55,278 nucleotides of DNA from a virus (IMGVR_UViG_3300033562_000464:1-55278); one strand, 5' to 3'. Shown: positions 7,693 through 51,779, counted from the first letter of the stretch. Notes: generated from the sequence alone by a model not told the origin. Made by a program: numbers and translations.

Positions 7693-8085
7693 TTAACCAA
7701 TAAAAACAATTCGCCCAGCAAGTGCAATGACAGCATTTGCATGAGGTGCATCTGGTAATTTTGTTGTATCAACAAAACCATGAATCAATAATGCCCCTGC
7801 AGCATTTCCGTATGTTACATCAACATCAGTCAATAATACGCCTTCCGCATCAACCGCTGCACCAGCTTGACCCGTTGTTCCAGCACTATTTTTTACGGTT
7901 ACACTATTTGCTGGGTTTGCAAGTGTGCCACCACCAAGGATAGTCCCTGCTTTTACAATTTTTCTACCATCGCCATCCGCAACAACACCAGCATTCGAAA
8001 CCGTTACAGGTAACGCTACATAATGGTCGGGAAATTTGATAATGTTTAATTGTGGGTTTAAATAAGCTTTTTCTAAAAATTTCAT
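7693..8085 (-). CDS. Head decoration protein
   Basis: GRKIVKAGT...GVLLTDVDVT...GFVDTTKLP pattern, between scaffold and capsid. Confidence 0.75.
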   Translation of the reverse strand: MKFLEKAYLNPQLNIIKFPDHYVALPVTVSNAGVVADGDGRKIVKAGTILGGGTLANPANSVTVKNSAGTTGQAGAAVDAEGVLLTDVDVTYGNAAGALLIHGFVDTTKLPDAPHANAVIALAGRIVFIG

Positions 8086-13196: not shown

Positions 13197-14921
13197 TTAT
13201 TCGATTATATTTGCTTTTATTGTCAATTTAATTTCATTGCTGAACCTGCCCTTAACATTTTTAACATCAAACCCAATAAATTCAATTTTACTAAACTTGT
13301 CAAACACTATTTCAGATTCATCCCAGTTGTCTGTCATGAGTGCTTTTGTGCCTTTTTTAGCATATAGCTCAAGTGCCACGGGTTTACGTGTGAAAACGTT
13401 TGCAGTAGCATCAAAACTTGTGCTCATGAAACTTTCGTGTATAAATTGAACCCCCGAAAGCCTTGCATTTAAATCTGATGCAAGTTGGGTTATTTTTTGT
13501 TCGTTGCCCCCACGCATTAGCCCATAAACATCTTCCATAGCTTCTGTCTTATCTATGCCAACTTGTTTAATTATGGAGTCAATAACATCGCCACCAACAT
13601 TTCTAAATACAATAACGTCATCTGGTATACTCCCTTTTGATATTACGTCACTAAGTGCATCGGCTTCACGCATTTGAACTGGCATCATTTTCTTTATGCT
13701 ACTCGCAGAAGCCCCTGCTGCTTTTGCTTTGTCTATGTCTATTTTATAATCGGCATAATTGCCCTCATACAAAAACCTGTTTATATTAAAACTATTTACA
13801 GTTGCGACGTATTGTTCAACATCATGGGTTTCTTGTATGGATAACTTGCTATAAAAAGCATTTACATCACTTTCAATATCCGCCCGAGTAATGTTTTTAT
13901 ATTGTGGTGCTTTGGGTTGGGTGGGTTTTATAACCGCATTAACCTGTGATACTTTAGATAGCACATTTTTAATATTGTTAGTCGGTATATTGTTGTCCTT
14001 TGCCCACTTATCAAGCTTTTTATTGTTGCCCCCACCATTATCAAGCCATGTTTTTATTTCATCACCTATTTCATCAAGGCTCTTTGTTATGACGGCTGTT
14101 TGGTAGCATAGCCCGTTCGGATGGTCAAGTGGCACTTTGCCAATTTTATAGGTTGTCATGTGTCTTTGTCGACATACTTCGCACGTCCTATTATGTTGAA
14201 GTACACTATGCCACAATATACCCTCTACAAACGGGTTATTTTTACAACTTGCCTCATGTGATATTTGGAAGCTATGTGTTAAAGTTGTCCTTGCAAGCCT
14301 TAATGAGTTATACTCAATATTTTTATTCCATGCAGCATAGCCTTCACCGAGCGTTTCCTTTATTTTGTCCTTATCCCACACTTTACGGGTATTTGGGTCA
14401 ACATAGGCTTGAAGGGCTTTGGCAATACTTACCGCAGATGACTTTTGTGCCATCCCAGCAAGTACCACATTTTGTATATCATTCCCCGAGCTTATTGCTG
14501 CCCCCCATATCCTATCGCTTAATGTTTTGGTGTCCTTGTATATGCCCCCACTTATAATCCTCGCCATGGAATCGCTTGATATTTTGCCAAACGTTTTGTC
14601 AAAGTTTTTTACAAGGTTCATATCCATACCTGCATTTTTAAAAGCATCCGTTAACATCAACTTTTGCACCGATGCAGGTATCACCGCTGCATCCATCCCA
14701 ACTTTAACAATTATCTTTTCAAGGTCATTATGTAGGCTCCTAATATAACTTCCATAATATGCCCTTGTTGCACTGCCTTCAGCGGTTGCATTGAACTTTT
14801 TAACTAGTTCAAGCCCTGCTTTTCTATAGGCTTGAAGCACATCCATATCTTGTTTCGCAGTAAGGACAATCATCTTTTTTCTAGCTTCTTTTTCTAGTTT
14901 TGCTAGGTAATCATTTGGCAC
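13197..14921 (-). CDS. MuF (SPP1 gp7-like) minor head protein fused to a C-terminal VIP2/C2-type ADP-ribosyltransferase
   Basis: MuF motifs RLARTT, RTCEVC, HPNGLC. ART motifs INRFL, VIVFRNV, FMSTS, DESEIVF (R-STS-ExE). Confidence 0.85.
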   Translation of the reverse strand: MPNDYLAKLEKEARKKMIVLTAKQDMDVLQAYRKAGLELVKKFNATAEGSATRAYYGSYIRSLHNDLEKIIVKVGMDAAVIPASVQKLMLTDAFKNAGMDMNLVKNFDKTFGKISSDSMARIISGGIYKDTKTLSDRIWGAAISSGNDIQNVVLAGMAQKSSAVSIAKALQAYVDPNTRKVWDKDKIKETLGEGYAAWNKNIEYNSLRLARTTLTHSFQISHEASCKNNPFVEGILWHSVLQHNRTCEVCRQRHMTTYKIGKVPLDHPNGLCYQTAVITKSLDEIGDEIKTWLDNGGGNNKKLDKWAKDNNIPTNNIKNVLSKVSQVNAVIKPTQPKAPQYKNITRADIESDVNAFYSKLSIQETHDVEQYVATVNSFNINRFLYEGNYADYKIDIDKAKAAGASASSIKKMMPVQMREADALSDVISKGSIPDDVIVFRNVGGDVIDSIIKQVGIDKTEAMEDVYGLMRGGNEQKITQLASDLNARLSGVQFIHESFMSTSFDATANVFTRKPVALELYAKKGTKALMTDNWDESEIVFDKFSKIEFIGFDVKNVKGRFSNEIKLTIKANIIE

Positions 14922-19878: not shown

Positions 19879-20337
19879 TTAATCGTTTTCAATTTCAGTA
19901 TAAGTATCAACAAACATTTTACAAACTTGAGTTGAAGTTGTAATTAATTCATATTTTTCAAGTATTATTTCTTGTGGTACAACTCTTTCCCTATTAGCGT
20001 TTCTGTATAATGAAGTTGCAAGGCTAACTTTTACGTATACTAGTTCAACTGTGTACCCTAACTCTTGAGCTTGTTTTGTTAACATTATCACGTTGTCGCT
20101 ATTTGTTCCTGTTGTGTCGTATAAAAAGCTAATTCCTGCTGCTAAATTGTTGTAAATTGCTTGTTTTTCTAACATTTTACTTTGTGCATGAGCCACTGTT
20201 GGGTTTTTTGGGTCGTAATTTGGTAAACTTTTTTTAATTTCATCACAATCTACAAATACTAAGTTGCTGTAGTTTTTATTTCTTATTGTTGACTTTCCGC
20301 TTGCTGGTAAACCTGCCATTATAACTAATTTTTTCAT
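19879..20337 (-). CDS. Zeta-toxin-like/AAA_33 P-loop kinase
   Basis: GLPASGKST Walker A, VDCDEIK, YDTTG, RNANRERVVP lid. Confidence 0.8.
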   Translation of the reverse strand: MKKLVIMAGLPASGKSTIRNKNYSNLVFVDCDEIKKSLPNYDPKNPTVAHAQSKMLEKQAIYNNLAAGISFLYDTTGTNSDNVIMLTKQAQELGYTVELVYVKVSLATSLYRNANRERVVPQEIILEKYELITTSTQVCKMFVDTYTEIEND

Positions 20338-20391
20338 TTTTGTTTCCTCCGTTTTTTAAGTTTTTTAAGTTGTTGTTTTGCTACTGAAGTT

Positions 20392-20420
20392 ATAATAACA
20401 TATTCCGATATGGTTTGCAA
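20392..20420 (-). promoter_or_regulatory. Sigma-A early promoter, class Ia
   Basis: TTGCAA-ACCATATCGGAATATGT-TATTAT. Confidence 0.75.
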
Positions 20421-20442
20421 GCTTTTTATTCGAAAATTTGAA

Positions 20443-20898
20443 TTATTTTTCTTCCGCTTGCAGCCTTGTTCTTATTTTGGTTAATCGCCCACAAAACTCC
20501 TTAGTGGTCAATACCGTTTGTGATGGGTCACTTTTGCCCATGCTATAGGTTAAGGTTGCTTCCCTAGTTGATAATAATGCTTTCCTAAACGAAGTATTCT
20601 CACTTAGTGCATTAAATGCCCTGTCAAGCAATTCTTGGTATTCCTTTCCATGCCTATCCATTTCAACACCCCTCCACCATAATTTTTGGGAGTGCCACCA
20701 GTTTTTATCCTTGCCTTTAAATTTTGCTTTTTTACCCACTAACTTACATACTTCAATTTGCATTTCCTCACTCTTAAATTTTAACGATTGTAAAAAGCCT
20801 TCCATTGAGTTACATTGCACACCATCTATTTCGAATGGGTTCGGTGAAAAATTACTTAGTGCATTTGCAGGGTAGTCACCCCAACTGCCTATATCCAT
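20443..20898 (-). CDS. NADAR-family protein (T4 gp30.3-like)
   Basis: ALSNF...F.IDG...SMEGFLQSLKF...FRKALLST signature. Confidence 0.8.
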   Translation of the reverse strand: MDIGSWGDYPANALSNFSPNPFEIDGVQCNSMEGFLQSLKFKSEEMQIEVCKLVGKKAKFKGKDKNWWHSQKLWWRGVEMDRHGKEYQELLDRAFNALSENTSFRKALLSTREATLTYSMGKSDPSQTVLTTKEFCGRLTKIRTRLQAEEK

Positions 20899-21402: not shown

Positions 21403-21735
21403 CTATAAAAGACCTAATCGCTTTCTTTTTCTTGCTTCAAGGTTAATTACTTCTAACCACGCTGATTTTGTATCCCTCGCAAATTCAACTTCATTGGTAT
21501 AAGGTTTCCAACCAACAACTTTGCCATTTTCAAAAACTGCGTATTGTGCCAAAAAGTATTCATCAACTTGTTCCCACATTTCACTCAATTCTTCATTCGA
21601 CAATTCTTTAAGCCCTAGTCCGTTGGTAACTAATTCAATGTTATCGTTTGTTATAAAGCCATTTGTTATTTCTTGATTTTTGTAACTTTCTAATGTGCTT
21701 TTAATTAGTACATTTACTATTTGTTCTTTTTTCAT
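21403..21735 (-). CDS. Hypothetical early protein
   Basis: Follows a class Ia promoter and GGAGG RBS. Confidence 0.7.
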   Translation of the reverse strand: MKKEQIVNVLIKSTLESYKNQEITNGFITNDNIELVTNGLGLKELSNEELSEMWEQVDEYFLAQYAVFENGKVVGWKPYTNEVEFARDTKSAWLEVINLEARKRKRLGLL

Positions 21736-21775
21736 TTTCCTTACCTCCAAGTTTTTAAATTTTTATTACTTTTAA

Positions 21776-21804
21776 ATGATAACATATTCCGATATGGTTT
21801 GCAA
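21776..21804 (-). promoter_or_regulatory. Sigma-A early promoter, class Ia
   Basis: TTGCAA-ACCATATCGGAATATGT-TATCAT. Confidence 0.8.
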
Positions 21805-21855
21805 GTCTTTTTATTCGAAAGTTTAAAGGGCTTGCTCACGCTCGCCCCCATGCTT

Positions 21856-22050
21856 TTAATAATCCCTAGTAAATGGGACATGGTTATCTTCTACCAATAA
21901 AAACCATTCAGCATCATCCTGTCTATTATCATTTAGTGCATTAACCATTATTTCGCCCCTAATCTTATCAATATTTTCAGCAATTACTTTATCATCAAAT
22001 ATTTCCCTAGCATAATTATCCGTTTGTATTATTTTCATTAGTTTCCCCAT
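21856..22050 (-). CDS. Small hypothetical protein
   Basis: 64-aa ORF followed by a hairpin terminator at about 21826-21849. Confidence 0.6.
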   Translation of the reverse strand: MGKLMKIIQTDNYAREIFDDKVIAENIDKIRGEIMVNALNDNRQDDAEWFLLVEDNHVPFTRDY

Positions 22051-23222: not shown

Positions 23223-23419
23223 TCGCCTGCTCTCCTAACACTTTCCTTGATATATTTTGTTTGTATCATTAATCTATTTCCTTCGTAGCCATCTGATTCA
23301 AATACTAGTATGCTTCCGTCGCTAAATGTAATTGCCACATAATCATCTTCTTCATTAATCGAACTTATTACTTTACCAGTAAATTGTTCCTCAAGTTCAT
23401 TATTTTTTGCCATTAACAA
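23219..23419 (-). CDS. Small acidic hypothetical protein
   Basis: GKVISSI...ITFSDGS pattern, GAGGAGG RBS. Confidence 0.6.
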   Translation of the reverse strand: MLMAKNNELEEQFTGKVISSINEEDDYVAITFSDGSILVFESDGYEGNRLMIQTKYIKESVRRAGE

Positions 23420-23637
23420 TTTGCCTCCTCATACCAACATTTGACACACTTTTCCTTTTGGTGCTCCGCCCCCACATTGCCACAAGTTGAAAATGATGGT
23501 TCACCACTTAAAAAATCTTTCGGGCAGTACTCAAATATTATTTCATCATCGGGCATGCCATCAAATTCATCTACTTTTTTTACCTTACCACTTAATAAAG
23601 CACCGCTCATCTTTGCCATTTCAATTCTGCTACACAT
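23413..23637 (-). CDS. Small Cys-rich protein
   Basis: YCP...C...CVKCW motif common in Firmicute phage small genes. Confidence 0.6.
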   Translation of the reverse strand: MCSRIEMAKMSGALLSGKVKKVDEFDGMPDDEIIFEYCPKDFLSGEPSFSTCGNVGAEHQKEKCVKCWYEEANC

Positions 23638-23648
23638 TTCACAACCCC

Positions 23649-23771
23649 CTAAAATGGTATATCATCGTCACCAAAATCATCATCAACGGATACGAAGTTT
23701 TCATTACATCTATTTCCGATTCTCCTAGTTGGCTTCGCCCCAACACTTTTTCTAACATTAGCCCTTTCCAT
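23649..23771 (-). CDS. 40-aa peptide ending in an SSB-like acidic tail (DDDFGDDDIPF)
   Basis: ATG directly follows the upstream TAA in the same frame. MERANVRKSVGAKPTRRIGNRCNENFVSVDDDFGDDDIPF*. Confidence 0.6.
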   Translation of the reverse strand: MERANVRKSVGAKPTRRIGNRCNENFVSVDDDFGDDDIPF

Positions 23772-24065
23772 TTATTCATCAATGTTATCACTAATAAAAG
23801 CTTTTGCATCATCCCAAGTTGTACCTACAAACTTTATTCCCAAATTACGCTCAATGGCACTTATTGCTGTTTTCATTTTTTCTGTAGCACCATTAATATA
23901 ATCTGCCGATGTGCCACCAGTGTTTCCTTGTGGGTTTAATTTTGAACTTATTTCGCCCATAACACCTATCACAATTTCACTAACTAATTCGGTTGCTTCC
24001 TCGTTTGTGCACCCAAGAAAATCAATAAATAATTTCCTCGCTCTTAATATGTTTGAATTTGCCAT
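23772..24065 (-). CDS. Hypothetical middle protein
   Basis: 97 aa, AGGAGG RBS, downstream of a class II promoter. Confidence 0.7.
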   Translation of the reverse strand: MANSNILRARKLFIDFLGCTNEEATELVSEIVIGVMGEISSKLNPQGNTGGTSADYINGATEKMKTAISAIERNLGIKFVGTTWDDAKAFISDNIDE

Positions 24066-24093
24066 TTAAAAACCTCCTTTTTTGTTATGCACC

Positions 24094-24125
24094 TAATATA
24101 TAATATAATTAGGTTTTTATTAAAG
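24094..24125 (-). promoter_or_regulatory. Class II promoter (putative phage sigma)
   Basis: CTTTAA-N17-TATATATTA. Confidence 0.7.
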
Positions 24126-24146
24126 TTGAAATAAAAAGTATTGCAA

Positions 24147-24500
24147 TTATCTGCAATACCCTGAAAAGTTTACTAATCTAGGCTTTTGGTTGTATTCTTT
24201 AGCCAATTCCGCCCCACGTTTGTTCACTTCGTTAATGTACGGCATAATTTTTTCTTTTGCTTCATCCCGTGTCATTAAGTTTACTGCGTATAATCTTTTC
24301 GCTATTTCTGCATTTTGTTTTAATAATCTCATTTCATCAGACATTGAAGTTACAGATTTTTTAACCCCAATTGTTTTTGATAATTCTTTAATATAATTTA
24401 AAGCATCTTCATAATTAAATGCTCTATATGGAGCCACTACACCATTTGTAAAGACCACATCGTATTCATCGCCAACTGCTTTAATTGTGTATTCGTTCAT
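24147..24500 (-). CDS. Hypothetical early protein
   Basis: Follows a class Ia promoter. Confidence 0.7.
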   Translation of the reverse strand: MNEYTIKAVGDEYDVVFTNGVVAPYRAFNYEDALNYIKELSKTIGVKKSVTSMSDEMRLLKQNAEIAKRLYAVNLMTRDEAKEKIMPYINEVNKRGAELAKEYNQKPRLVNFSGYCR

Positions 24501-24540
24501 TTTATTACCCCCAAGTTTTTAAGTTTTTTATTACCCTTAA

Positions 24541-24588
24541 ATGATAACATATTACGATATGGTTTGCAAGTGCCATATCGGGATATTT
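24541..24588 (-). promoter_or_regulatory. Sigma-A early promoter, class Ia, with a second inverted dyad copy
   Basis: TTGCAA-N17-TATCAT (24569-24541). An inverted copy of the spacer dyad lies at 24573-24588. Confidence 0.75.
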
Positions 24589-24593
24589 AAAAA

Positions 24594-24779
24594 TTATTTT
24601 TTACCCTCATAATCAAGGTATTTTTCATATTGTGCCCACAAGTAAGAAAACTGCTTGTCGGCTTGTTTTACACCACGTTTCACAACATCTGATTCATAAG
24701 TGTAATTATTATCCCTTTTAACACACCATTCCTCAAAACTTAACAAGTTGTCACCCACAATTAATTCCCTTCCGCACAA
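24594..24779 (-). CDS. Small hypothetical protein
   Basis: About 60-aa ORF overlapping the end of holA. Confidence 0.5.
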   Translation of the reverse strand: MCGRELIVGDNLLSFEEWCVKRDNNYTYESDVVKRGVKQADKQFSYLWAQYEKYLDYEGKK

Positions 24780-25669
24780 ACTAAAATATCTATCATTAAT
24801 TTTTCCATTGCCACGTTTTGGTCAATTTTACCTGTTTTTATCCCAAACTCAGCGCCTTGCACCAACCTCAAAATCATCAACAATACGTTTAAAGAATAGT
24901 AGTTTGTCTTTTCCCTTATGTGTTTTATATGGTAAACATTCAAGCCCGTCTTTGCAGCAATATCCTTGTCGGTATTTTGTGCCATACCTTGCACCAACAA
25001 TATATTTCTAAAATTAGTATAAAACAAGCTTATTATCTTTATAGGGCTTTCACCACCAGCCATCAATTCTTTAAAGCAATCAAATGCAGGTAACGCTTGT
25101 CCCGATGTTACATAGCCCACCATATCAAACACCACATCTTCTGGTCTTGGTATTACTAATTCATAAACTATATCAAAAGTTATTTCATCCAACCGTTTTA
25201 ATTTGTCAATTTCTAATTCAACCCGACTAAAATCACCGTTGCTATTTCTTACAACTTTACTAGCCAATTGATTTGAAATATTTAGCTCTTTGGTTACAAG
25301 CCCCACCAATTGCCACTCGGTTAACTTGTCGAAGCTTATTATATAATCTTTCCACTGCTTGTAAAACTTGCCACGCCCGTCAATATTTGTATAACATAAT
25401 ATAACAATATTATCACCAATTAAACTAATTAAATCAATGTCTTGCTTTACCAAATCATCATCGTCCCTTATCATGTAGGTTGATTTTTGTTTAAATAACA
25501 TGACGCCAGTAAGTTTTGGTATTATTTCGGTAAACTTGTTCGCCTTAACAACATTAGAGCCTATTTTACGAGCATATAAATCCATCATACCACGCTCATC
25601 CCCAACAAATATATATAAATTTCGAAGTTTGCCACCACTTAACTCCCTTTTTAAACCAGCTATGTCCAT
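24761..25669 (-). CDS. holA: Clamp loader delta subunit
   Basis: LYIFVGDE, MLF clamp-wrench motif, ELEIDKL, VFDMV, GESPIKII, IKTG. Confidence 0.85.
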   Translation of the reverse strand: MDIAGLKRELSGGKLRNLYIFVGDERGMMDLYARKIGSNVVKANKFTEIIPKLTGVMLFKQKSTYMIRDDDDLVKQDIDLISLIGDNIVILCYTNIDGRGKFYKQWKDYIISFDKLTEWQLVGLVTKELNISNQLASKVVRNSNGDFSRVELEIDKLKRLDEITFDIVYELVIPRPEDVVFDMVGYVTSGQALPAFDCFKELMAGGESPIKIISLFYTNFRNILLVQGMAQNTDKDIAAKTGLNVYHIKHIREKTNYYSLNVLLMILRLVQGAEFGIKTGKIDQNVAMEKLMIDILVCAEGN

Positions 25670-26479
25670 TTAATTTTCCCTCCAAATTTTTCGAAGATCG
25701 AGCACAAAAATGTCAAGTAGTGAAAGTTTGTTTACCCCTTTTATTTTAAACATGCCACGGTATTTATACACTAATCGCATTGTTTCAACGTACCGAAACG
25801 CCTTATCCTTTGGCACATCTTTCATTTTAGCATTGCACACATAAAGCACCATGTTAAAAAATAATCCAGGTGGGTAACCACTATCATCATCTTTTAGTTT
25901 GATTTGTTTGTAAATATTTAAACTGTTCAACGTGCTAACCTTACCGATATTATCTATTACCTTATTTGTAAAATCATATAACTCTTTTACCCCAACATCC
26001 TCAAGAACTTTAATCTCGCCCATGTTGGTGACGCACCCAAGCATTAAATCATCATCCGTGAATTGTTTTAGCTCGTTTTGTGTATAGGTGCCCATCCTAA
26101 ATATTTTTCCTCTGCTTTGTATAGTTGGCAATAGGTTTTCAACATCCTCAACACCTAAAACAACATAACAGTTTTTCGGTGGTTCCTCAGTCAATTTTAA
26201 TAATGCGTTTTCGGCTTGTGGGGTTAACTCATCCGCCCCCTTTAAGTAATAAATCATTTCACTACTTAATTTGTTTGCCCCGCTAATAATACCACGTATG
26301 TCATCAACTTTTAGGCTTTCGGGTTGTGTTACTTGTGCATTGATTTTATTTGCAATATATTCGACCAACATGCTTCTGCCCGAGCCAGCCCAACCAACAA
26401 CCATAATAAATTGTGGAAACCTTTCGGTCTCCACTAGTTCGGTGATGTGTTTTTTTAGTTCTTCCTGCCCTACAAACAC
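25670..26479 (-). CDS. holB: Clamp loader delta-prime subunit
   Basis: Degenerate Walker A (GWAGSGRS), AENALLKLTEEPP, LLPTIQSR. Confidence 0.88.
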   Translation of the reverse strand: MFVGQEELKKHITELVETERFPQFIMVVGWAGSGRSMLVEYIANKINAQVTQPESLKVDDIRGIISGANKLSSEMIYYLKGADELTPQAENALLKLTEEPPKNCYVVLGVEDVENLLPTIQSRGKIFRMGTYTQNELKQFTDDDLMLGCVTNMGEIKVLEDVGVKELYDFTNKVIDNIGKVSTLNSLNIYKQIKLKDDDSGYPPGLFFNMVLYVCNAKMKDVPKDKAFRYVETMRLVYKYRGMFKIKGVNKLSLLDIFVLDLRKIWREN

Positions 26480-27534
26480 AATAACAACACCTCGCCTTCA
26501 ATAATTGGTTTTACATTGTTTTCCCACTTAATTTTCGCACTTAGCTCAATAAATGATTTTAGTACTTCTTGAAATAGGCTCATTTCTAGTTGTATGTAGT
26601 TTTGTAAATCAGCGTCATACATTTGGGGTATCGCTATGTAATCAAACACATCTATTTCGGGGTTAATTAGCAATTTATACTTCATAATATCAAGTACAAA
26701 ATTAGTGTATGATTTAACAAACTGCTTTAAATCTTTGCCCTCGGAGTGCTGCAATTCAATCAACATAATAGCACCAGCACCATTGCCATCAATTATCATA
26801 TCTGTCAAATTAAAAAACACATCATAATCAACCGCCCCAAGTATGCCAATAATGTCATCAAGTGTTAAAACTTGACCATAACCTAAACAAGTATCAAGCA
26901 GTGTTATGGCATTTCGCATCCCACCATCTGCAATTTTTGCAATATATTCAATTGCATCTAGAGCAATATCAAAACCTGGTTCGTCTTTTGCGGACGCTTC
27001 TGGTGCAAGTGCATCTTCCTCGCCCCTAATAATATACTGCAACCTACCAATTATTTCATGTGTGCTTAACCGCTTAAAATCAAACCGTTGAACCCTACTT
27101 ATGATTGTGGCTGGTATTTTTTGTGGGTCGGTTGTGCAAAACATAAATATTGTATTTAGTGGTGGTTCTTCCAATACTTTAAGCATTGCATTCCATGCCC
27201 CTATTGATAACATGTGACACTCATCAATAATGTAAACCTTATTTTCGGCATCCATTGACTTAAATTTACAATTATCAATAATTACACGGACATTATCTAC
27301 CCCGTTATTACTTGCACCATCAATTTCAATGGGCTTTCCTTTGCCTTTGTTTATGTCATGGGCAAATATTCTTGCTGACGTTGTTTTGCCCGTACCAGCC
27401 CCACCCGTAAAAAGATAAGCTTGTTTTGTTTCACCCGTTTCAAGTTGGTTCATTAATATTGTTTTTATGTGCCCCTGACCAACTACCTCGTTAAAATGTT
27501 TTGGTCGATACTTACTTGCTAAATTTTCTGACAT
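26470..27534 (-). CDS. dnaX: Clamp loader gamma/tau ATPase (gamma-length)
   Basis: KYRPKHFNEVVGQ, GAGTGKTT, IEIDGASN, IIDECHML, LEEPP, TIISR, GGMRNA. Confidence 0.93.
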   Translation of the reverse strand: MSENLASKYRPKHFNEVVGQGHIKTILMNQLETGETKQAYLFTGGAGTGKTTSARIFAHDINKGKGKPIEIDGASNNGVDNVRVIIDNCKFKSMDAENKVYIIDECHMLSIGAWNAMLKVLEEPPLNTIFMFCTTDPQKIPATIISRVQRFDFKRLSTHEIIGRLQYIIRGEEDALAPEASAKDEPGFDIALDAIEYIAKIADGGMRNAITLLDTCLGYGQVLTLDDIIGILGAVDYDVFFNLTDMIIDGNGAGAIMLIELQHSEGKDLKQFVKSYTNFVLDIMKYKLLINPEIDVFDYIAIPQMYDADLQNYIQLEMSLFQEVLKSFIELSAKIKWENNVKPIIEGEVLLLCL

Positions 27535-33170: not shown

Positions 33171-33953
33171 TCACCATTTACCGCACTCGGTTTTATAATT
33201 ACAATAAGTGCAATCCTTCTTGTTATCACTTTTTGGTGGTATGCCCCCACCATTAACATATGAATTGCATGTTTCAATCTTATTAACTACGAGGTCCTCT
33301 TTCATTTGTTCGGTAATATCAAATTGAAAAACTTTCAAATCGCATATATCCCGATTTTCATAAAGGAAGATAATACTATTAATGTTTAAACAGGTTGAGT
33401 ATGCTGCTACTTGCACCTTGTGGTCTTCAAATGGTTGAACTTGCCCTTGCCATTTGTAAAAACTTTCTGTCTTAATTTCAATGATATAATACTTTCCTCG
33501 GTATTTAACAATACCATCACACATAAAGCTCATGTTTAGTATATCATTGTAACATTTTGTTTCCATGCCATTCACAGAAACAACCGTTGTCCCAGAAGGT
33601 TTTCTTCTTCTTAGATACTCTTTTACACTAATCCATTCACAATCAAAACCATGTTTTTTCATTTTTGATATTGCATATTGGAGCTGCTCATGCCTTGAAG
33701 AACCGCTTGATGTTATACCAATATTAGTATATGACCTAGTTGTATCATCAGATTTAGCCCCCGTAACTTGAAAATACATATTACGCATACAACCCCCCAA
33801 TGAAGAGGGTTTGTATGTTTTGGATGCTTCACGACGTTCGTCATCGTTTTCAATTGTTTTGCATAATTCCATTAAAAACATGTCATGAGGTGGTTTGTTA
33901 TTGGTAACATTTTTGACCAACTTTGCGAGGTTTGCCAGATTACTCTTCGCCAT
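33171..33953 (-). CDS. Cas4-like PD-(D/E)xK exonuclease
   Basis: PSSLGGC, CDGI...IEIKT, QVAAY, C-terminal CTYCNYKTEC. Start reassigned to MAKSNL. Confidence 0.85.
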   Translation of the reverse strand: MAKSNLANLAKLVKNVTNNKPPHDMFLMELCKTIENDDERREASKTYKPSSLGGCMRNMYFQVTGAKSDDTTRSYTNIGITSSGSSRHEQLQYAISKMKKHGFDCEWISVKEYLRRRKPSGTTVVSVNGMETKCYNDILNMSFMCDGIVKYRGKYYIIEIKTESFYKWQGQVQPFEDHKVQVAAYSTCLNINSIIFLYENRDICDLKVFQFDITEQMKEDLVVNKIETCNSYVNGGGIPPKSDNKKDCTYCNYKTECGKW

Positions 33954-35046
33954 CAACTTCACCGCCTTCGGTTTCGGTTGTTTGTTCCTCGGCTTCTTCG
34001 TCTTCACGCATTCTGCAAAGTATTTGATTAACTTCGCCATCAACAAGTTTAATTGCAATATCATTTCCATAATGTAATTCAAAACTATCGGATTGTATTG
34101 CTGATATTTGGTCTTGCAACAAAACGATATTCAATTGGCATTGAAAATCCGTAAAATTTTCACTTTCTAAATATGGGGTTAATTCGGCACCACCATCATT
34201 TAAGTCACTAAATAGTAGACCATCTTTTGTAAAATACAATTGTATACCGTTTTTGTCATATGGGCTAACAAATAATCCCAATCTATCCAAAATACTAGCA
34301 ATTGCTGGCTTTGATATTTTACATTTACTTGGGTATTCAAATTCAAGGATGTGGGACAAATCTGGGTAATCTGTCAACCCCTCAAGCTCCGCCCCAAATA
34401 TTACAAGGTTGTCGGTTGTAAATAATAATTTTCCGTCATTGTGTTGCACTTTAATATCTTCGCTTGTTACACTGTTCATCAACACCGCTAGTTCTTGGGT
34501 TAACAACACGGGCTCATCAAATAGTTTAACATTGTTCATGCACATCTTAACCCCATCCGTTGTTGTAGCCATATCCCCAACATAATAACCCGTAAGGCAA
34601 GGCATAGACATGTCAGTTGCAAGTGATGCTTTATTAATAGCGAAAACACTTTTTAACACCTTTGATTTAATAACAACTTCTGGGGTTTTTGTGCTAAATG
34701 TAAATGTTGGGAACTTTTCGTTCAATAAAGGTATTTTATAATTCCCGTTCCCTTTTACCACAACAACATCGTCACCCTTTTCAAACTTAACAATTCCCGA
34801 TGTTGTTTTGCTTAATAACTTAATAAATTGGTCTGCTGGTACAACCATTTCTCCCGATTTACCAACCACATTATTTTCAATTGATGTAATGTAGTTATTT
34901 ATGTCTGTTGCGGTAATTCTTAAAGATTTTTTGTCGAGCTTGATGTGTATAAAGCTTGTAATTGGTAGGAGTTTGTTGTTGCCTACCCCCTTAGTGATTT
35001 TTGTTAACATTTCATTTAACTTCGATGTTTTAATTTCAAATTGCAT
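33940..35046 (-). CDS. dnaN: DNA polymerase III beta sliding clamp
   Basis: 368 aa. LPITS..I, ITATD, FP, P.LTG, TTDG, YPD, ILDR landmarks. Confidence 0.85.
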   Translation of the reverse strand: MQFEIKTSKLNEMLTKITKGVGNNKLLPITSFIHIKLDKKSLRITATDINNYITSIENNVVGKSGEMVVPADQFIKLLSKTTSGIVKFEKGDDVVVVKGNGNYKIPLLNEKFPTFTFSTKTPEVVIKSKVLKSVFAINKASLATDMSMPCLTGYYVGDMATTTDGVKMCMNNVKLFDEPVLLTQELAVLMNSVTSEDIKVQHNDGKLLFTTDNLVIFGAELEGLTDYPDLSHILEFEYPSKCKISKPAIASILDRLGLFVSPYDKNGIQLYFTKDGLLFSDLNDGGAELTPYLESENFTDFQCQLNIVLLQDQISAIQSDSFELHYGNDIAIKLVDGEVNQILCRMREDEEAEEQTTETEGGEVDGEE

Positions 35047-37678: not shown

Positions 37679-40048
37679 TTAACATGGTATAGCTTCACCA
37701 TACCAACGGTCTGTCACTTCTAAATCACATTTCATAGGAACAGTTATCCTGTCCGCACAACTGCCAATCATAAGTTTCTCAACCCTTGCTTTAACTTGTT
37801 TAGCATACTCAATTGGGCACTCACCTATAATTTCGTCATGCACCGTCATCAACATACGGTATCCCCAATTTTTTAATTTTAAGTCGTTTGCTAATACAAT
37901 CATAGCTTTTTTTGTAATATCGGCTGCACTACCTTGTATTATACTATTAACACATTGTCTCTCGGCTTGTGCAATAAAACCACCATTATCCTTAATGTGT
38001 ATTCCCTCAGCCTTTGCCTTTGCCTTGATAGCGTTCTTTTCTTTTACCCCATATGTTTTATTTAACATTGCAGTATAGGATTGCTCTAAATAATCGGGCA
38101 CCGCTTCATCACTATCAATCATTGTAAATGAAAACTTTGGTAATTGCATATCGGGCAATCGGCACTTCCTACCATAAGCGGTTTCAACAAAACCATATAC
38201 ACGAGCATGCTCTTGACTATCATCAATAAACTTTTTAACTTTTGGAAACTTTTCAAATAATGTGTCAATTATGCCTTGCGCTTCTTTTTTACTTATGCCA
38301 AGGTCAACACCGATATTTTTTGCCCCCTTACCGTACATAATACCAAGAACAATCGCTTTAATTTTATCACGTCGTTTTTTACCCTCGGGGTTTTTTGTTC
38401 CATCTGGTCTAAACTCTTTACATTCCGAAGCTGGCACATGAAAAACAATACTTGCTATCCATGAATAAATATCCGTTCCTTTTGCATACTCAGCAATCAT
38501 GGTTTCGTCTTGTGACATAAATGCCAATATTCTAGGTTCTTGTTGACTAAAGTCACCCCCTACCAACACATATTTTCCAGATAATTTATTTTCCCTTACT
38601 AATTGCCTAACCCTAAATTCCTCAACCGATACAACCGTTGACTTCGATATTAAATAACTAAAATCACTTGCTGTGAACATCTTTCTAACATCCTTGTTTT
38701 TACTTGGTATGTTTTGCAAATTTGGGTCACTACTGCTATATCTTCCCGTTCTAGCCCCGTACTGGTTAAAGCTTGCATGAATTTTTTTAGTCCGCTTATT
38801 TACAACTAGTGGAAGCTTATCTATGTAAGTACTTAAAAGTTTGGCAAGTGTTCTATAATTTAATATATCTCTTGCTAGTGGTTCATCAAACGTTTCAAGT
38901 ATCTCCTCACCCGTTCCCCGTGGCTTTTCAGAATCTGGGCTTTTAAGCCCCATTATATCATAGAGTATTATGCCTAGTTGAACATTACTATTTATATTAA
39001 TGGGGTTGTCTAGTTTATTGTACACGCTAGGGCTTTTCCTACTTAATTCCTTTAGCTTATCACCTAGTTTACTAATGTGACCATGTACAATTGCTTCCGC
39101 CTTTATTAATTCATTCGTATATTTTTTACTTAGCCCAACCGAATAAGGCGCATCAATATTAACCCCATTTAATTCCATTTGTGCGGTGACTTTAATTACT
39201 GGTAATTCTATATTTTCATATAACCACGCAACTCTATCAAGGTCTTTGGCAACACACAATTCACCATCTAATGATAAAAACTTTTCTTGAAACTTGTACA
39301 ATAAATATGTCATGTATGGGTCTTTTGCACCATATAAAAAAGCTGTTTCAATTGGAACTTTTGTAAATGGCATCCCCTCAAATAATGTACTATAGGAAGC
39401 AAGTTCACTATCTTTTTTGCCCGATTTTACAACATACTTCTCATACAAAAATTTTAAATTATGAGCCTCGGCTTCATTAAGTAAATAACCAGCAATTAAA
39501 GTATCCCAAAATATTCGTATATTTTCAATGTTGACATCTAACTGCCATTTAATTACATGTAGGTCGAATTTTGCATTGTGAAGTATTACTTTTGTATCGC
39601 CTAAATTATTAAGCTCTTTTGTAATTATTTCAATTGGTATTTGCTCGTCTAATTTTTGCCCAGTAATATAGTTGATGTGGTTAATTGGCACATAGGCTGG
39701 TTTCATATTAGGTGTATAAAAACATATACCTGCAATCATATCATCGATAGTATTTAGTCCATCAGTTTCTGTATCAAGTGCAAGTTCGCCATTTTTCTTC
39801 GCCATTTCAATATAGTGTTTAAATTCTTCAATGTCTTTAATACAAATAAGGGAGCCGTCATCTTCCCCAATCATTCGCCTAACCAATTCTGTTATAGCTT
39901 GTATTTTTCCCATTATGCCACTTCCGCCCTTTACGGTTATGACCCCGTCTTTTTTAGGCTTGTTTTTTACTTTGTGCAAAGCGAGCAAATCCTCAGCTTT
40001 TGTTGTTGGTTTCCTTTCAGGAAATTTAAAAAGTGTGCTTTGTGCCAT
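37679..40048 (-). CDS. polA: Family A DNA polymerase with 3'-5' exonuclease
   Basis: DTET, HNAKFD, TGRYSSSDPNLQNIP, DFSQQE, KAIVLGIMYG, VHDE. Confidence 0.96.
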   Translation of the reverse strand: MAQSTLFKFPERKPTTKAEDLLALHKVKNKPKKDGVITVKGGSGIMGKIQAITELVRRMIGEDDGSLICIKDIEEFKHYIEMAKKNGELALDTETDGLNTIDDMIAGICFYTPNMKPAYVPINHINYITGQKLDEQIPIEIITKELNNLGDTKVILHNAKFDLHVIKWQLDVNIENIRIFWDTLIAGYLLNEAEAHNLKFLYEKYVVKSGKKDSELASYSTLFEGMPFTKVPIETAFLYGAKDPYMTYLLYKFQEKFLSLDGELCVAKDLDRVAWLYENIELPVIKVTAQMELNGVNIDAPYSVGLSKKYTNELIKAEAIVHGHISKLGDKLKELSRKSPSVYNKLDNPININSNVQLGIILYDIMGLKSPDSEKPRGTGEEILETFDEPLARDILNYRTLAKLLSTYIDKLPLVVNKRTKKIHASFNQYGARTGRYSSSDPNLQNIPSKNKDVRKMFTASDFSYLISKSTVVSVEEFRVRQLVRENKLSGKYVLVGGDFSQQEPRILAFMSQDETMIAEYAKGTDIYSWIASIVFHVPASECKEFRPDGTKNPEGKKRRDKIKAIVLGIMYGKGAKNIGVDLGISKKEAQGIIDTLFEKFPKVKKFIDDSQEHARVYGFVETAYGRKCRLPDMQLPKFSFTMIDSDEAVPDYLEQSYTAMLNKTYGVKEKNAIKAKAKAEGIHIKDNGGFIAQAERQCVNSIIQGSAADITKKAMIVLANDLKLKNWGYRMLMTVHDEIIGECPIEYAKQVKARVEKLMIGSCADRITVPMKCDLEVTDRWYGEAIPC

Positions 40049-40122: not shown

Positions 40123-40932
40123 TTAAAAAACATCTTCGCCTGTTACTTCTTTTGTTTTTCTTGGTGCTGGTGTTTGGCTTTCTCCACCCCTTGAACTAGC
40201 CCGACCTTTTGGTGCTTGTTCTTGTACAGGTTCTTGTTTGGCACCACGCCCTGTTCTTTGTGTGCTTTGTGGTGTACTTGCACCCCTAGCACTACCGCCC
40301 CTGCTTTGTGCTTGTGGCTTTGCTTGTTCCCTACTATTGTTTCTTCTTTGTGTAGGTGGTTCGGGTGTTGGTTCATCGTTTGCGGTAACATCTTCGCCAT
40401 CTAACCACGCATTCATTTTATCGGATGACCATTCTAAAACAAAATCACCTAATAAATCCTGCTTTTCTGGTAGTTCATCCAATGTCATATCATCTTTGTC
40501 AAGTGCATATAACTCATATGTTGTTTTAGTGTCCTTTGGCTTGCCATGTCTTTCAATTTCATAAAGACGGTTACATAATTGACCATATTTGTTAAACATG
40601 CCCAAAATTTTAGGGATAAATAACTGCCCCCTTTCCCATGTTTTAACCTTACCATCCTCGTCCTCAAGCTGCAAAAAGAATTTAACTTTTACTTTAAGCT
40701 CTTTGTTTTCACTAGATTCTTGGCACATAGGGCAATCACCTGATTGCAAGCACTCAATATATCGCTTTTTACCGTTTAAATCAATTTCATGCACCGCATA
40801 AATGTCAAGTTCTTCTTCGTTGTCATAAAGAAATCTTACTGTTGCACAATCCATATCATTTTCTAATTTAAAAAAATCATTGTTGCTACCTTTAAAATCT
40901 TCCATTGCTCTTTTTGCGTTAAGTTTTGCCAT
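40123..40932 (-). CDS. Single-stranded DNA-binding protein (gp32-like)
   Basis: FFKL...VRFL...H...C....CPMC Zn site, disordered tail ending EDVF. Confidence 0.75.
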   Translation of the reverse strand: MAKLNAKRAMEDFKGSNNDFFKLENDMDCATVRFLYDNEEELDIYAVHEIDLNGKKRYIECLQSGDCPMCQESSENKELKVKVKFFLQLEDEDGKVKTWERGQLFIPKILGMFNKYGQLCNRLYEIERHGKPKDTKTTYELYALDKDDMTLDELPEKQDLLGDFVLEWSSDKMNAWLDGEDVTANDEPTPEPPTQRRNNSREQAKPQAQSRGGSARGASTPQSTQRTGRGAKQEPVQEQAPKGRASSRGGESQTPAPRKTKEVTGEDVF

Positions 40933-42955: not shown

Positions 42956-44263
42956 CTAAAATAATTCTGTACCATCTTGAAATTCTTCGTCAGCTTCTTG
43001 CCTTGCTTGTGCCCCACTACTTTCTGATGTGGGTATAAACTTAAAATGACCTTTATCAATATCCCAAAAATAAAGCAGTTCAATATTATTTAAACCATAC
43101 CTATTTTTCTTAACCACAACTTTAAGTCCTGCACCAGATTTTTTTATACTTATTACCCTTGAGCTATTTTGCCCAATCGCATCAGCTTCACCTATTTCAT
43201 CAAGTTCTGGAGCATCCGCCTCGGTTTCACCTTTACGCTTTTCATTAGCCTTTCGGCTCGCTTGTGCATCCGCTATTATTGGTATACCATAACGCTCTGA
43301 ACTATTATATAAATCTTCAGCAACGTGTGCCAATTGTATACGAATTGCATCACCTTTTTTGTACCTTGCATCATCCATCAAACTGAATTGGTCAATGCCT
43401 ACAATGTCGGGCTTGTACTTTTCAATTAACCCATTAAGCATAGGGACTGTCAATTGTTTGCCACCAAAATCCTTTGGTGTAACTATTATAAACTGGGTCT
43501 CACATTTGCTTAACCTTATTAACCATTCCTCATATTCCTGTGAAGATAAACCGCCAAGTTCTTTTTTTCCCGTCATTAAACCTAAATTACTAAAGTGGCT
43601 GCTAAGTGTATCAAATCTATAGCCAACCATTAACCTGCCCATTTCGCCACTATACAACAGTATTTTTTTACCTGCAAGCCATGCCACAGTTAAAAAGTAT
43701 AATAAAACCCAACTTTTGCCCTCATTTGTACGACCAACAATTGTAATTAAATCTTCACCTGCGAGCCATCCATGTAATATTTCATCAAGTTCGGGCATCC
43801 CACTACTTATGCCAAGCAATCCGTCACATTCACAACGAGCCTTATAATCAACCAATCTTTCCATAGCATTTTTTGCTAAATCATACCCTTCATTAAAACC
43901 ACCCATTAACTTAATTATTTCTGGAAGTTGGCTTAATATATAATCAACCGCTTGTTTTGAATCGGTTAAACAAACTTCAGCAGTTTTGTTTAATACTGGA
44001 ACCATAAACGAATAAAGATGTGCTTCTTTTATTTTTTCAACTAAGTACCTATTAGATTCTGTGCATTCAAAAGGCTCAAAATCACTAAATTCATCCATTA
44101 TGGTAATTTCATCTGGGACGGTGCTATATTGCTCATAATGGTTTGTTATAAAGTTATATTCATCACGATATTTTAAAAAGTGTTCTTCACCCAACCCATT
44201 TTGAAATATTATGTTTAAACTTTTCTCCTTTAAAACCTTATTTAATATTTGTAACTCGACCAT
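42956..44263 (-). CDS. dnaB: Replicative DnaB-like helicase
   Basis: GRTNEGKS, SGEM, GIDQ, AQASR, KNRYG. Confidence 0.9.
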   Translation of the reverse strand: MVELQILNKVLKEKSLNIIFQNGLGEEHFLKYRDEYNFITNHYEQYSTVPDEITIMDEFSDFEPFECTESNRYLVEKIKEAHLYSFMVPVLNKTAEVCLTDSKQAVDYILSQLPEIIKLMGGFNEGYDLAKNAMERLVDYKARCECDGLLGISSGMPELDEILHGWLAGEDLITIVGRTNEGKSWVLLYFLTVAWLAGKKILLYSGEMGRLMVGYRFDTLSSHFSNLGLMTGKKELGGLSSQEYEEWLIRLSKCETQFIIVTPKDFGGKQLTVPMLNGLIEKYKPDIVGIDQFSLMDDARYKKGDAIRIQLAHVAEDLYNSSERYGIPIIADAQASRKANEKRKGETEADAPELDEIGEADAIGQNSSRVISIKKSGAGLKVVVKKNRYGLNNIELLYFWDIDKGHFKFIPTSESSGAQARQEADEEFQDGTELF

Positions 44264-45035: not shown

Positions 45036-45950
45036 TTAAAACACTTCATCACTAATTTCATTGCTTCGTTGTTGACGTGCCTTTGCTACCGCTACATTAT
45101 CAATACTCTCAACATTTTTTCCTTTTCCACTAACCCCACCCTTTGGCATTTTTTCATTCAAATATGAATTAAATTTAGTGCCAAACAATGTTTCTGGTCT
45201 TAGATACTGTTCCATTTTATCATCGCCTAACCAACTTGCACATTTTACATTAATAACATATTTAAACTGCTCTAATGTGTAGCCGTCTTTAATTCTAGCA
45301 TTAATATGTTTTATAGTAGCCTGTGTTCTAACACTAAAATTTTTATTTGTTTTTGTGTTTAAGTAACTAATAGCATCATTAATTATTTCGTAATTATAGG
45401 CACTAACAAGGACAGGGTCAGTTTTTTTATTAGGTATTAAAGAAGGTTGAGTTGCTTTGGAAGATTCTTTTTCTTTTTTATTAGTATTACTTATATTATT
45501 ACTGATTGTTGGGATTTCTAGCGAACTAGTTTGGGATTTTTCGCCTTCTTGTTCTGGGTTTTCCCCAAACTTGTCACTTATTAATTCAACTAGTGTCGTA
45601 AGGTCATTATTTATTTTATAATGCCCCTTTGCTGGCATTCCAACAACTTTAAATTCAATTAACTTGGCTTCTATTAGTTTTGTTCTTGCGGTGCGTTGTT
45701 GGTCTTCTTTTAGCCCAGTCCAATCGAAAATTCTTTGTGTAGTTGCATAGAAAAAACCGTCATCACCTATTGTATCCTGCCTATAATAATAATGGTTAAA
45801 TTTAAGCAAAGCTTGATAATATATAGTAACATTTATTCCCAATTGCTTGGCTAGACTTACATTATAAATATTAAAGTTATTCCCATTTAAAAGATTGAGC
45901 ATTTGCAAAGATAAATTTTCCATGGACATATTTTTGTTATTTAACGTCAT
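45036..45950 (-). CDS. Replication initiator with conserved phage C-terminal domain (Phg_2220_C-like)
   Basis: N-terminal wHTH-like region. C-terminal YLN..T...ARIKDGYT...YLRPETLFG.KF..YLNE. Confidence 0.85.
   Translation of the reverse strand: MTLNNKNMSMENLSLQMLNLLNGNNFNIYNVSLAKQLGINVTIYYQALLKFNHYYYRQDTIGDDGFFYATTQRIFDWTGLKEDQQRTARTKLIEAKLIEFKVVGMPAKGHYKINNDLTTLVELISDKFGENPEQEGEKSQTSSLEIPTISNNISNTNKKEKESSKATQPSLIPNKKTDPVLVSAYNYEIINDAISYLNTKTNKNFSVRTQATIKHINARIKDGYTLEQFKYVINVKCASWLGDDKMEQYLRPETLFGTKFNSYLNEKMPKGGVSGKGKNVESIDNVAVAKARQQRSNEISDEVF
45509..45574. repeat. Three degenerate 22-bp iterons (putative origin)
   Basis: TTGGGATTTCTAGCGAACTAGT / TTGGGATTTTTCGCCTTCTTGT / TCTGGGTTTTCCCCAAACTTGT, next to an AT-rich tract (45465-45500) inside the initiator gene. 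Confidence 0.6.
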
Positions 45951-46003
45951 TAAATATCCTCCGCTTGGTTTTATAAAAAGGGCTGTCACCAGCCCCCTTA
46001 ATA

Positions 46004-47235: not shown

Positions 47236-48918
47236 TTAACTTAATAGCCAATCTACTATTTCAACACGTTTTCCCTCACGTATAACACCATCAACCAACA
47301 TGTCAGATAATGCACCTTTTTCATAAACTATTTCCTCAATACGCTCATCTATTGTATCTTTACATACCAACGTTATTATATTAACTGTGCCTTTTGTTCC
47401 GATACGGTGTGCCCTGTCTTCCGCTTGGTCTTTTGTAGCTTGGTTCCAAGGGCTATCAAGAAAAATTTCTGTTGTGCCAGATGTTAATGTGTAGCCAGTT
47501 CCCATTGCACCAATAGTTCCGATTATTACTTTGCAAGTTGGGTCGTTTTGGAACCTATCTTTTTCAGCCATAGGCTCGTTTATTTCACCTGTAATAATTG
47601 CTGGGTTATATTGTGCCAAACGTTTTTCGGCTTCATTTGTAACGCTTGTCCAATTACTAAATATTAAAACCTTTTCGCCATTTTCAACCGCTTCCTCAAC
47701 TAGTTCTTCCATTCTGTCAAGCTTTGCACTTTCTGAAATTGTTGAGCTTAATATTCCCGTGAACCCTGTTGCTTGGCGTAATCTTATTAGTTGGGCTAGT
47801 GGATTATGGCTGAATTTAATTTGGTCAATATTTGCTTTGATTGCATTTTTTACATCTTTATAAAGTTGTGCTTGTTTTGGTGTCATTTCGACATATTCAG
47901 TTATTTTAACTTTTGGGGGTAAATCAAGCACTTCATCTTTTTTTCTTCTCAACATGTTAGCGTCAAGTATTTCCCTAAGTTGGCTGAGGTTTTTATAGCC
48001 CACTATTTCATAACCGCCATACCCACCCATAACACAATAATGATTTTTAAATGAGTATAAACTATGTTGTTCAACATCAATCCATTTTAATGGGTTATAA
48101 AGGTCAATAGGTTTGTTCATAAGTGGGGTTCCAGTTAGTGCCATTTTGTAAAAACTTTTGAGGCTGTGTATCGCTTTTCCTTGTTGACTAGTTGAGTTCT
48201 TTGCCTTATGGATTTCGTCAATAATTACCATACCAATTATTCCCTTTTTACACATTTGCTCAAGCTTGCTGCAAATTTCTTCATCCCTAAGTGTTTCAAT
48301 ATTTGTTACTAGGAAGAACTCGTTGTGTGCAACATTTAAATCTGCAAGTCGTTCTTTTACGCTGCCAATAACAACTTTTCCACCAGCTTTTATTGTGCTT
48401 CCTATTAGGTGGGCTTTTTCATTGCTATGTGTGCCTATTTCATTAACCCAGTTCCACTTTAAACCATTTACCCCTGCAACTATCAAACAATGTTTAAAAA
48501 GGCTTTTTCTAGCTATTGCAATGTCTATCGCTTGTTTTGTTTTCCCAAGCCCTTGTTCATCACCAAGTATGAACTTGTTGTGTGCTAACCCATAATTAAA
48601 ACCTTCTATTTGGTGGTTAAATGGCTCCGTCTTAAATCTATAACTGATTGTATCAACACCATCAAATATTGCACTCGCTTCTTCGGCTTTACCCTTTGTG
48701 TGGGCTTTGCCAATAATTTCAAGTTCTTCAGCCCCAAACAAGGCTATAACATTATTTATATCGCTTGTTGGCACTTCCCATTCCTTTGTTGTTGGTACAT
48801 AGTAGCGTTTCGACAATGTTTTTATTTTTGCAATTAATTCCATGCTATAGGGTATCTTCACATAAAGGCTCTCTTTTGTTTTTAAGTTTGTCGCTTGTTT
48901 TAAAGTTATTTGTATCAT
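47236..48918 (-). CDS. SNF2-family helicase
   Basis: DEQGLGKT, DEIH, LTGTP, LRR.K, KVLIFS, QAEDRAHRIG. Confidence 0.93.
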   Translation of the reverse strand: MIQITLKQATNLKTKESLYVKIPYSMELIAKIKTLSKRYYVPTTKEWEVPTSDINNVIALFGAEELEIIGKAHTKGKAEEASAIFDGVDTISYRFKTEPFNHQIEGFNYGLAHNKFILGDEQGLGKTKQAIDIAIARKSLFKHCLIVAGVNGLKWNWVNEIGTHSNEKAHLIGSTIKAGGKVVIGSVKERLADLNVAHNEFFLVTNIETLRDEEICSKLEQMCKKGIIGMVIIDEIHKAKNSTSQQGKAIHSLKSFYKMALTGTPLMNKPIDLYNPLKWIDVEQHSLYSFKNHYCVMGGYGGYEIVGYKNLSQLREILDANMLRRKKDEVLDLPPKVKITEYVEMTPKQAQLYKDVKNAIKANIDQIKFSHNPLAQLIRLRQATGFTGILSSTISESAKLDRMEELVEEAVENGEKVLIFSNWTSVTNEAEKRLAQYNPAIITGEINEPMAEKDRFQNDPTCKVIIGTIGAMGTGYTLTSGTTEIFLDSPWNQATKDQAEDRAHRIGTKGTVNIITLVCKDTIDERIEEIVYEKGALSDMLVDGVIREGKRVEIVDWLLS

Positions 48919-51704: not shown

Positions 51705-51750
51705 TTTTAAAGCCCTCCGTTTTTTAAGTTTGTTTACCACCACTGAACAT

Positions 51751-51779
51751 ATTATATAATAATATAGCATGGATTGCAA
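51751..51779 (-). promoter_or_regulatory. Sigma-A early promoter, class Ib
   Basis: TTGCAA-N17-TATAAT-ATGTTCAGTGGT. Confidence 0.78.

Follow-up and report, generated by a model that had tools for sequence, protein, structure and literature searches.

The locus considered here raises the question of whether a 40-codon ORF that ends exactly like a bacterial SSB is a phage gene in its own right or part of another one, and whether its product is made. The ORF lies in a virus record of 55,278 bases, estimated to be 90% complete and analysed here as a whole (the window). A 97-codon ORF on the minus strand (23772-24065, -) ends with a TAA stop at 23772-23774, and the next codon is the ATG of the 40-codon ORF (23649-23771, -), the TAA-ATG junction occupying 23769-23774 (-). 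The open frame of the 40-codon ORF starts precisely at this ATG (23769-23771), reads MERANVRKSVGAKPTRRIGNRCNENFVSVDDDFGDDDIPF and is closed by a TAG (23649-23651). Residues 2-29 (23685-23768, -) constitute a basic linker half with 7 Lys/Arg, and are followed by the acidic tip DDDFGDDDIPF (23652-23684, -), the last six residues of which are the DDDIPF hexapeptide given for the C-terminus (SSB-Ct) of bacterial SSB in PMC5872125. Coordinates, sequence and basic N-terminal half are exactly as reported in a preliminary description of this DNA, in which the peptide was called “hidden”. This term overstates the case, as each of the two products has already been called as a gene of its own on 3 contigs (three sources) in a collection of 15 billion proteins.

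The occurrence of the DDDIPF tip on the 40-codon ORF is far above chance expectation. A degenerate DNA pattern for DDDIPF followed by a stop has 1 match in the window and none in 100 dinucleotide-preserving shuffles, and a six-frame scan of the window for acidic tails with Phe as the last residue yielded the 40-codon ORF as its sole match. The likeness to bacterial SSB goes beyond the identity of the last six residues, and includes an acidic run with a Phe before the tip, a flexible segment leading up to the tip, and Phe as the last residue of a free C-terminus. Unlike bacterial SSB, the 40-aa and 97-aa products lack an OB fold and show nothing suggesting a tetramer, the tip is carried on a separate 40-codon ORF, and the segment preceding it is rich in Lys and Arg, the linker of SSB being rich in Gly, Gln and Pro. 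The absence of an OB fold had been proposed previously, and indeed no Pfam family, and hence no OB-fold core, was detected in either product (E≤0.01), the AlphaFold model consisting of helices only. The 138-aa product obtained by reading through the TAA has no Pfam family at E≤1, and a DUF669 domain match is absent from the 40-aa, 97-aa and read-through products in Pfam.

The nature of the 40 codons becomes apparent when sequences on both sides of the stop are compared with those of other proteins. An exhaustive phmmer search, with the ORFs read through the TAA as query and 1.84 billion representatives as target (E≤1e-3), returned 24 proteins: the two ORFs themselves, one giant repeat protein, and 21 small relatives. 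The giant protein (P0006, 4978 aa, E 1e-14) was rejected as spurious, its score being the sum of 15 tandem repeats at 1-5 bits each. The 21 relatives feature one to three copies of a helix-loop-helix module of about 40 residues, with conserved Lys/Gln, Ile, Phe-x-Gly, Ala and Phe in columns that are nearly invariant in the family alignment. This alignment comprises 19 of the 21 proteins; P0010 and P0016 were omitted on account of degenerate repeats, P0016 also resembling a secreted repeat protein. The 97-aa product is a two-module phage protein, whose module 1 is degenerate and module 2 canonical. The latter (residues 59-97; 23775-23891, -) consists of a helix, the loop LGIKFVGTT and a second helix, and was identified by regular expression, alignment and AlphaFold.

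Similarity to relatives continues over the stop. BLASTP aligned the read-through product with P0009 (201 aa) in one segment covering residues 10-138 (E 2e-12), which extends in P0009 from module 1 to its own ...DDEIPF end, such that DF.DD(D/E)IPF closes both proteins. The alignment with P0018 (66 aa) is ungapped over residues 61-108, with 54% identity (E 4e-14). In the register set by where the last module stops, the sequence of the window is DNIDE-stop-M-E-RANVRKSV, and in the same register P0018 reads DNIDESKYIAGARQSV, P0009 DNIDASKWTASERKSQ and P0026 NENLKDSKYITSNKIK, all three featuring Ser-Lys-Tyr/Trp at the positions of stop-Met-Glu in the window. This in-frame homology over the TAA indicates that the 40 codons are the counterpart of the C-terminal extension of the family. 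Judged from sequence, then, the 40-codon ORF is a C-terminal portion cut off from a small phage module protein, without independent origin. All 21 relatives that were fetched are single proteins, and the window alone has modules and tail parted by a TAA-ATG. Fusion of the two parts in relatives was one of the outcomes envisaged in the preliminary description, and fused proteins were indeed found by phmmer and BLASTP; the 97-aa and 40-aa products themselves had no tblastn match in 50,697 phage records.

The tail itself is also seen in relatives. The last residues are ...PF in 3 of the 21 proteins (DDEIPF, DMPFPF and DMPLPF), and Phe or Tyr is the last residue in 9, six of which have it after acidic residues. 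Another 7 of the 21 end with Lys, in several cases following a Lys/Arg-rich stretch. Most relatives have a Lys/Arg-rich segment after the last module, which matches the basic half of the 40-codon ORF, and the tip closest to the canonical SSB hexapeptide within the family is that of the window. These recurrent linkers and tails suggest a family plan of one or more modules, a basic linker and an acidic aromatic tip. Such a plan parallels that of bacterial SSB, with its core, disordered linker and docking tip, with the difference that the core of the family is of another, non-OB type.

An AlphaFold model of the read-through product based on the family alignment has a mean pLDDT of 76.7, and the block means for residues 61-100 lie at 93-97. 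In this model, residues 62-75 form a helix, 76-83 a loop and 84-107 a second helix which crosses the position of the stop, and the rest of the 40-aa peptide is without helix or strand (pLDDT about 65-69). Helix-extension-helix domains, which bind nucleic acid, are characterised by two helices and an extended loop between them; Foldseek gave no match of the model to the PDB at E≤0.001, and a profile search against PDB sequences none below E 1. The residue pattern had suggested HeH, SAP, Rho_N or DUF3072-type domains, for which the read-through product and 8 relatives gave no Pfam match at E≤1. A weak Atlas lead to DUF3072 (score 0.84) concerns a viral cluster in which 11% of members have DUF3072; ESM Atlas has no usable match for the 97-aa product, and P0007 gives leads below 0.9 only. 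The best structure matches in BFVD are unnamed small phage proteins. The 97-aa product, for which no Pfam family was found, weakly matches phrog_18060 (“unknown function”, E 2e-05, residues 52-97), and by motif and alignment it belongs with a phrog_18060-like module family. A predicted complex of the 97-aa protein and the 40-aa peptide scored 0.00, a value that counts neither way.

Further searches yielded few additional members. Word-based searches of 5.8 billion proteins retrieved only the queries themselves, and no protein of 22-70 aa resembling the 40-aa peptide; a search with alignment A1 gave 5 proteins, one of them new, and blastn of the 4-kb region a single irrelevant match of 82 nt. 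No relatives of the 97-aa product, P0009, P0026, P0019 or P0012 were found in viral contigs, nor of P0019 or P0012 in metagenome contigs, and the one match of P0027 in genome contigs proved false, lying within an amidase-like gene. A phage locus with a delta subunit 49% identical to that of the window (L002) has no downstream counterpart of the 97-codon or 40-codon ORF. When P0011, P0009 and P0007 were compared with phages by tblastn, only a weak match to Bacillus phage SPbetaL5 was obtained, in an unannotated block of small hypothetical genes. A 65-aa hypothetical protein of this phage (L003:4007-4204, +) matches the family profile (E 2e-12), and features one module and an acidic C-terminus ending in Trp.

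Whether the severed part is translated was considered from codon use and from the signals for translation initiation. The codon score of the 40-codon ORF, 0.565 bits per codon, corresponds to the 81st percentile of true in-frame windows; scores as high occur in 0.1% of off-frame windows and in none of the 129 intergenic ones. The codon use is thus gene-like, and no Shine-Dalgarno site accompanies it: pairing at the ATG amounts to -2.1 kcal/mol, versus a median of -10.7 kcal/mol for 57 gene starts, 8 of which are as weak. Internal ATGs have a median of -2.5 kcal/mol. The 97-codon ORF has a strong Shine-Dalgarno pairing of -13.4 kcal/mol (GGAGG, 24073-24077, -). Zero-gap stop-start junctions are present at four other gene pairs of the genome, e.g. 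delta'/delta, and nearly all other tight junctions in the genome have the Shine-Dalgarno site inside the upstream gene. Compared with such coupled pairs, the 97/40 pair has the start abutting the upstream stop, and lacks the Shine-Dalgarno site within the upstream gene. The gene next downstream (23413-23637, -) encodes a 74-aa protein of no family, and its own Shine-Dalgarno site overlaps the end of the 40-codon ORF, so that the 40 codons exactly fill the space between the genes. Continued production of the peptide, by reinitiation, is favoured by the ATG abutting the stop and by the codon use. The lack of a Shine-Dalgarno site argues against an established gene, and for a nonsense mutation that is recent and silent.

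The explanation that we tentatively prefer, and to which we give a nearly even chance, is that of a split gene with low-level reinitiation at the ATG yielding a free 40-aa peptide. The ancestral gene would have encoded one or two helix-loop-helix modules, a flexible linker rich in Lys and Arg, and an acidic tip with a terminal aromatic residue. In the window, an in-frame TAA is placed exactly at the boundary of module and linker, with ATG as the next codon. The 97-aa module protein would be translated from its own strong ribosome-binding site, and ribosomes ending at the TAA may restart at the abutting ATG and produce the free 40-residue peptide, probably at low level. The DDDIPF tip would then bind repair, restart and replication proteins, in the pockets by which these recognise the C-terminus of host SSB. 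Once freed, it could compete with host SSB, or draw these proteins to nucleic acid or another target of the basic half. When tethered to modules, as in P0009, the same tip would recruit SSB-tip readers to whatever the modules hold. We infer here the translation of the peptide, its binding partners and the ligands of the modules.

A recent nonsense mutation is the closest competitor of this explanation, and quite possible, if less probable. By this account, a sense codon, which is Ser in three relatives, changed to TAA, the 40 codons that follow are not translated but have yet to decay, and the ATG is coincidental. The 97-aa module protein would keep working, like the many members of the family that stop shortly past the last module. 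Such tailless members do exist, with P0021 ending 5 and P0024 13 residues past the last module. The lack of a Shine-Dalgarno site, with pairing like that of internal ATGs, fits this account, as does the fact that the split is absent from all relatives. The sequence is moreover identical in the three runs discussed below, and so provides no sign of age. On the other hand, the three relatives have Lys where the window has ATG, and a second change is therefore required. Met makes up about 2-3% of codons by our estimate, a figure that bears on how readily an ATG would follow the TAA by coincidence. The perfect tip and intact codon use also count against a gene part that is no longer read, although both would equally be expected if the mutation is young.

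Occasional read-through of the TAA, giving an abundant 97-aa protein and a rare 138-aa protein with the tip, appears improbable. A comparable case is the read-through coat extension of the RNA phage Q-beta. Frame and homology are continuous over the stop in the window, and the modelled helix passes through it. Nevertheless, TAA is the ordinary stop of this genome, used by 52 of 84 ORFs in a crude minus-strand ORF call, no tRNA gene and hence no suppressor was found in the window, and RNA folding at the junction is no different from that of shuffled sequences (z -0.5), all of which makes read-through unlikely. Known read-through sites in bacteria and phages are also mostly TGA. The preliminary description had suggested, as its second option, a single protein of about 138 codons interrupted by the TAA. 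The one-gene part of this proposal is borne out by the in-frame, gap-free homology at the junction; of the two origins offered there for the TAA, a recent nonsense mutation is quite possible and read-through unlikely.

An independent stand-alone decoy gene that arose de novo, without relation to the upstream ORF, is highly improbable. Its own ATG, its existing gene call and its exact SSB tip would all suit such a gene. However, its first 10 residues and its tip are homologous, in frame and without gaps, to the extensions of relatives, and it has no Shine-Dalgarno site. The main proposal of the preliminary description, a stand-alone decoy, therefore stands only in part: the tip is real, no OB fold accompanies it, and the phage has a separate SSB, but the codons are homologous to the extension found in relatives of the upstream protein. 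An activity as a free peptide is nevertheless compatible with an origin by splitting, since severing leaves the possibility of a free SSB tip.

Logan contigs from three runs, belonging to three studies of microbial-mat metagenomes, span positions 23626-23911 with 0 differences, one of these runs possibly being the source of the window itself and the depth in the other two being 3.8-3.9. This agreement at the TAA, together with the separate gene calls on 3 contigs, makes plain assembly error unlikely; a sequencing error or a minority variant fixed by the assembler, with a sense codon and a single 138-aa protein in the real phage, could draw on the low depth in the two independent runs and on the loss of rare variants from contigs (the comparison being blind to minority variants, e.g. 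a rare sense codon at 23772-23774), and we consider it very improbable given three concordant assemblies. The identity of the three contig sets also leaves no variation for testing selection on the 40-aa peptide. The sequencing runs found to contain the locus included none of RNA. A match of 37 nt between the acidic region and another contig of run X1 (7 differences) was attributed to chance, as it runs on into unrelated sequence.

All called genes of the window, from family matches and a crude ORF pass, are on the minus strand, with negative GC skew throughout. They include a full replication set with an initiator, a DnaC-like loader, a DnaB-like helicase, a Toprim primase, an SSB (40123-40932, -; phrog_14578, E 6e-51), a family A polymerase, a sliding clamp, the tau/gamma, delta' and delta clamp-loader subunits, a UvsX-like recombinase, a Cas4-like nuclease and two resolvases. 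No counterpart of chi or psi was recognised in the window. This 55-kb phage thus combines a family A polymerase, a sliding clamp of its own and a clamp loader encoded by three genes (33940-35046, 24761-27534, 37679-40048). An SNF2-family helicase of the same replication set (47236-48918) has an N-terminal HARP domain (PF07443, E 6e-06), a domain of annealing helicases. A putative amidoligase is found in the phage early region (50901-51779; Amidoligase_2, E 5e-36).

The 97/40 pair is located about 700 bases downstream of the delta gene, with two small genes between. A promoter-like repeat lies ahead of the gene for a 117-aa protein, the upstream neighbour of the 97-codon ORF, and a terminator-like hairpin (24135-24162, -; 12 pairs, then a run of T) overlaps the end of this gene (stop at 24147-24149). 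Downstream of the hairpin and ahead of the 97-codon ORF is a promoter-like site (24095-24123, -). The intervening small genes, the promoter-like repeat and the terminator-like hairpin mean that co-transcription with the clamp loader is not implied. A conserved element of about 80 nt occurs in three copies (24496-24623, 21727-21858 and 20329-20474) directly upstream of minus-strand genes. It precedes the genes starting at 24500 and 20337, and its middle copy is near ORF starts at 21750 and 21881. Each copy comprises a promoter-like site of the TTGCAA-17-TATCAT type and a Shine-Dalgarno region, and the element is probably a repeated phage promoter and leader.

Tails made up of an acidic stretch, a hydrophobic residue and a final Phe are found on three replication proteins encoded on the minus strand, i.e. 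the SSB (40123-40932, ...GEDVF, the EDVF end reported previously), the DnaB-like helicase (42956-44263, ...GTELF) and the initiator (45036-45989, ...SDEVF). The three proteins may thus share a docking tail that is specific to the phage and differs from the DDDIPF type. In phage T7, the SSB (gp2.5) and the helicase (gp4) have acidic, Phe-ended C-terminal tails that dock on the phage polymerase, and the likeness with the tip of the 40-codon ORF is that of an acidic tail with a terminal aromatic residue serving as a portable docking peptide. The 40-codon ORF carries the bacterial DDDIPF type, unlike the phage's own type of end, and this points to host-type readers. The SSB tip has been presented as a central docking site in bacterial genome maintenance, and as a proposed antibacterial target.

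Host-type tips are ordinary on phage SSBs. Their occurrence on other proteins has a precedent in prophage DUF669 proteins with DDDIPF ends, interpreted by the authors of PMC13687109 (2026) as imitating the C-terminus of bacterial SSB so as to gain access to host proteins. These proteins and that of the window are alike in being non-canonical phage DNA-metabolism proteins with a host-type SSB tip. DUF669 is an ssDNA-binding fold, whereas the window has a small helical repeat core and a detached tail. A full-text literature search covering few subscription journals found no phage-encoded free SSB-tip peptide, decoy or competitor.

Viral contigs scanned for DDDIPF followed by a stop contained at least 118 such stretches. 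Most of the matches listed are ORFs of 100-220 aa, taken by length as ordinary SSBs, and at least 8 of those listed are mini-SSBs, two of which were scanned and match phrog_18154. Two of the loci listed (L015, motif 13728-13748, +; L084, motif ending at 7935, +) have an OB-fold SSB ORF upstream, in a frame other than that of the DDDIPF tail; they represent SSB genes with a frameshift, by sequencing error or real shift, and not stand-alone peptides. At least four loci encode similar helical phage proteins of 73-75 aa ending DDDIPF (L028:1279-1497, -; L077:1958-2176, +; L012:2622-2846, -; L039:2983-3207, -), and the two that were scanned, L028 and L012, match phrog_1811 (“unknown function”) and no Pfam family. 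Like that of the window, the phrog_1811 protein is a small non-OB phage protein with an exact SSB tip, but its tip is fused to the protein rather than split off. The phrog_1811 proteins are unrelated to the module family (family profile E>0.6), and no member of the module family was present among the matches listed. Two further small non-OB, non-SSB ORFs ending DDDIPF were each noted once, one of 98 aa (L047:808-1101, +) with an N-terminus weakly resembling the C-terminal domain of ribosomal L7/L12, and one of 63 aa without family (L071:11756-11944, -).

The presence of such tips on unrelated small non-OB phage families renders the general idea of the preliminary description reasonable. It is tempting to go further and view the free peptide, with its basic half and DDDIPF tip, as a natural competitor or adaptor of the host SSB interactome, the split as an adaptive fission that frees the tip, and both as one case of a wider strategy of unrelated small non-OB phage proteins. 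We regard this extended proposal as doubtful at present. The carriers of the wider strategy may include the module family, phrog_1811 and others from the pattern scan, and may tap or jam host repair and restart proteins.

What is new at this locus is the recurrence of an SSB-type tip on an uncharacterised, non-OB, helix-loop-helix family of phage proteins, in this phage detached as an ORF of 40 codons. If made, the peptide would be a natural SSB-tip competitor small enough for synthesis and testing. If it is not made, the locus would be a clean example of a nonsense codon creating an apparent “micro-gene”. In addition, the tip would provide a first functional hint for the module family, namely that its members may work with proteins that read the SSB tip.
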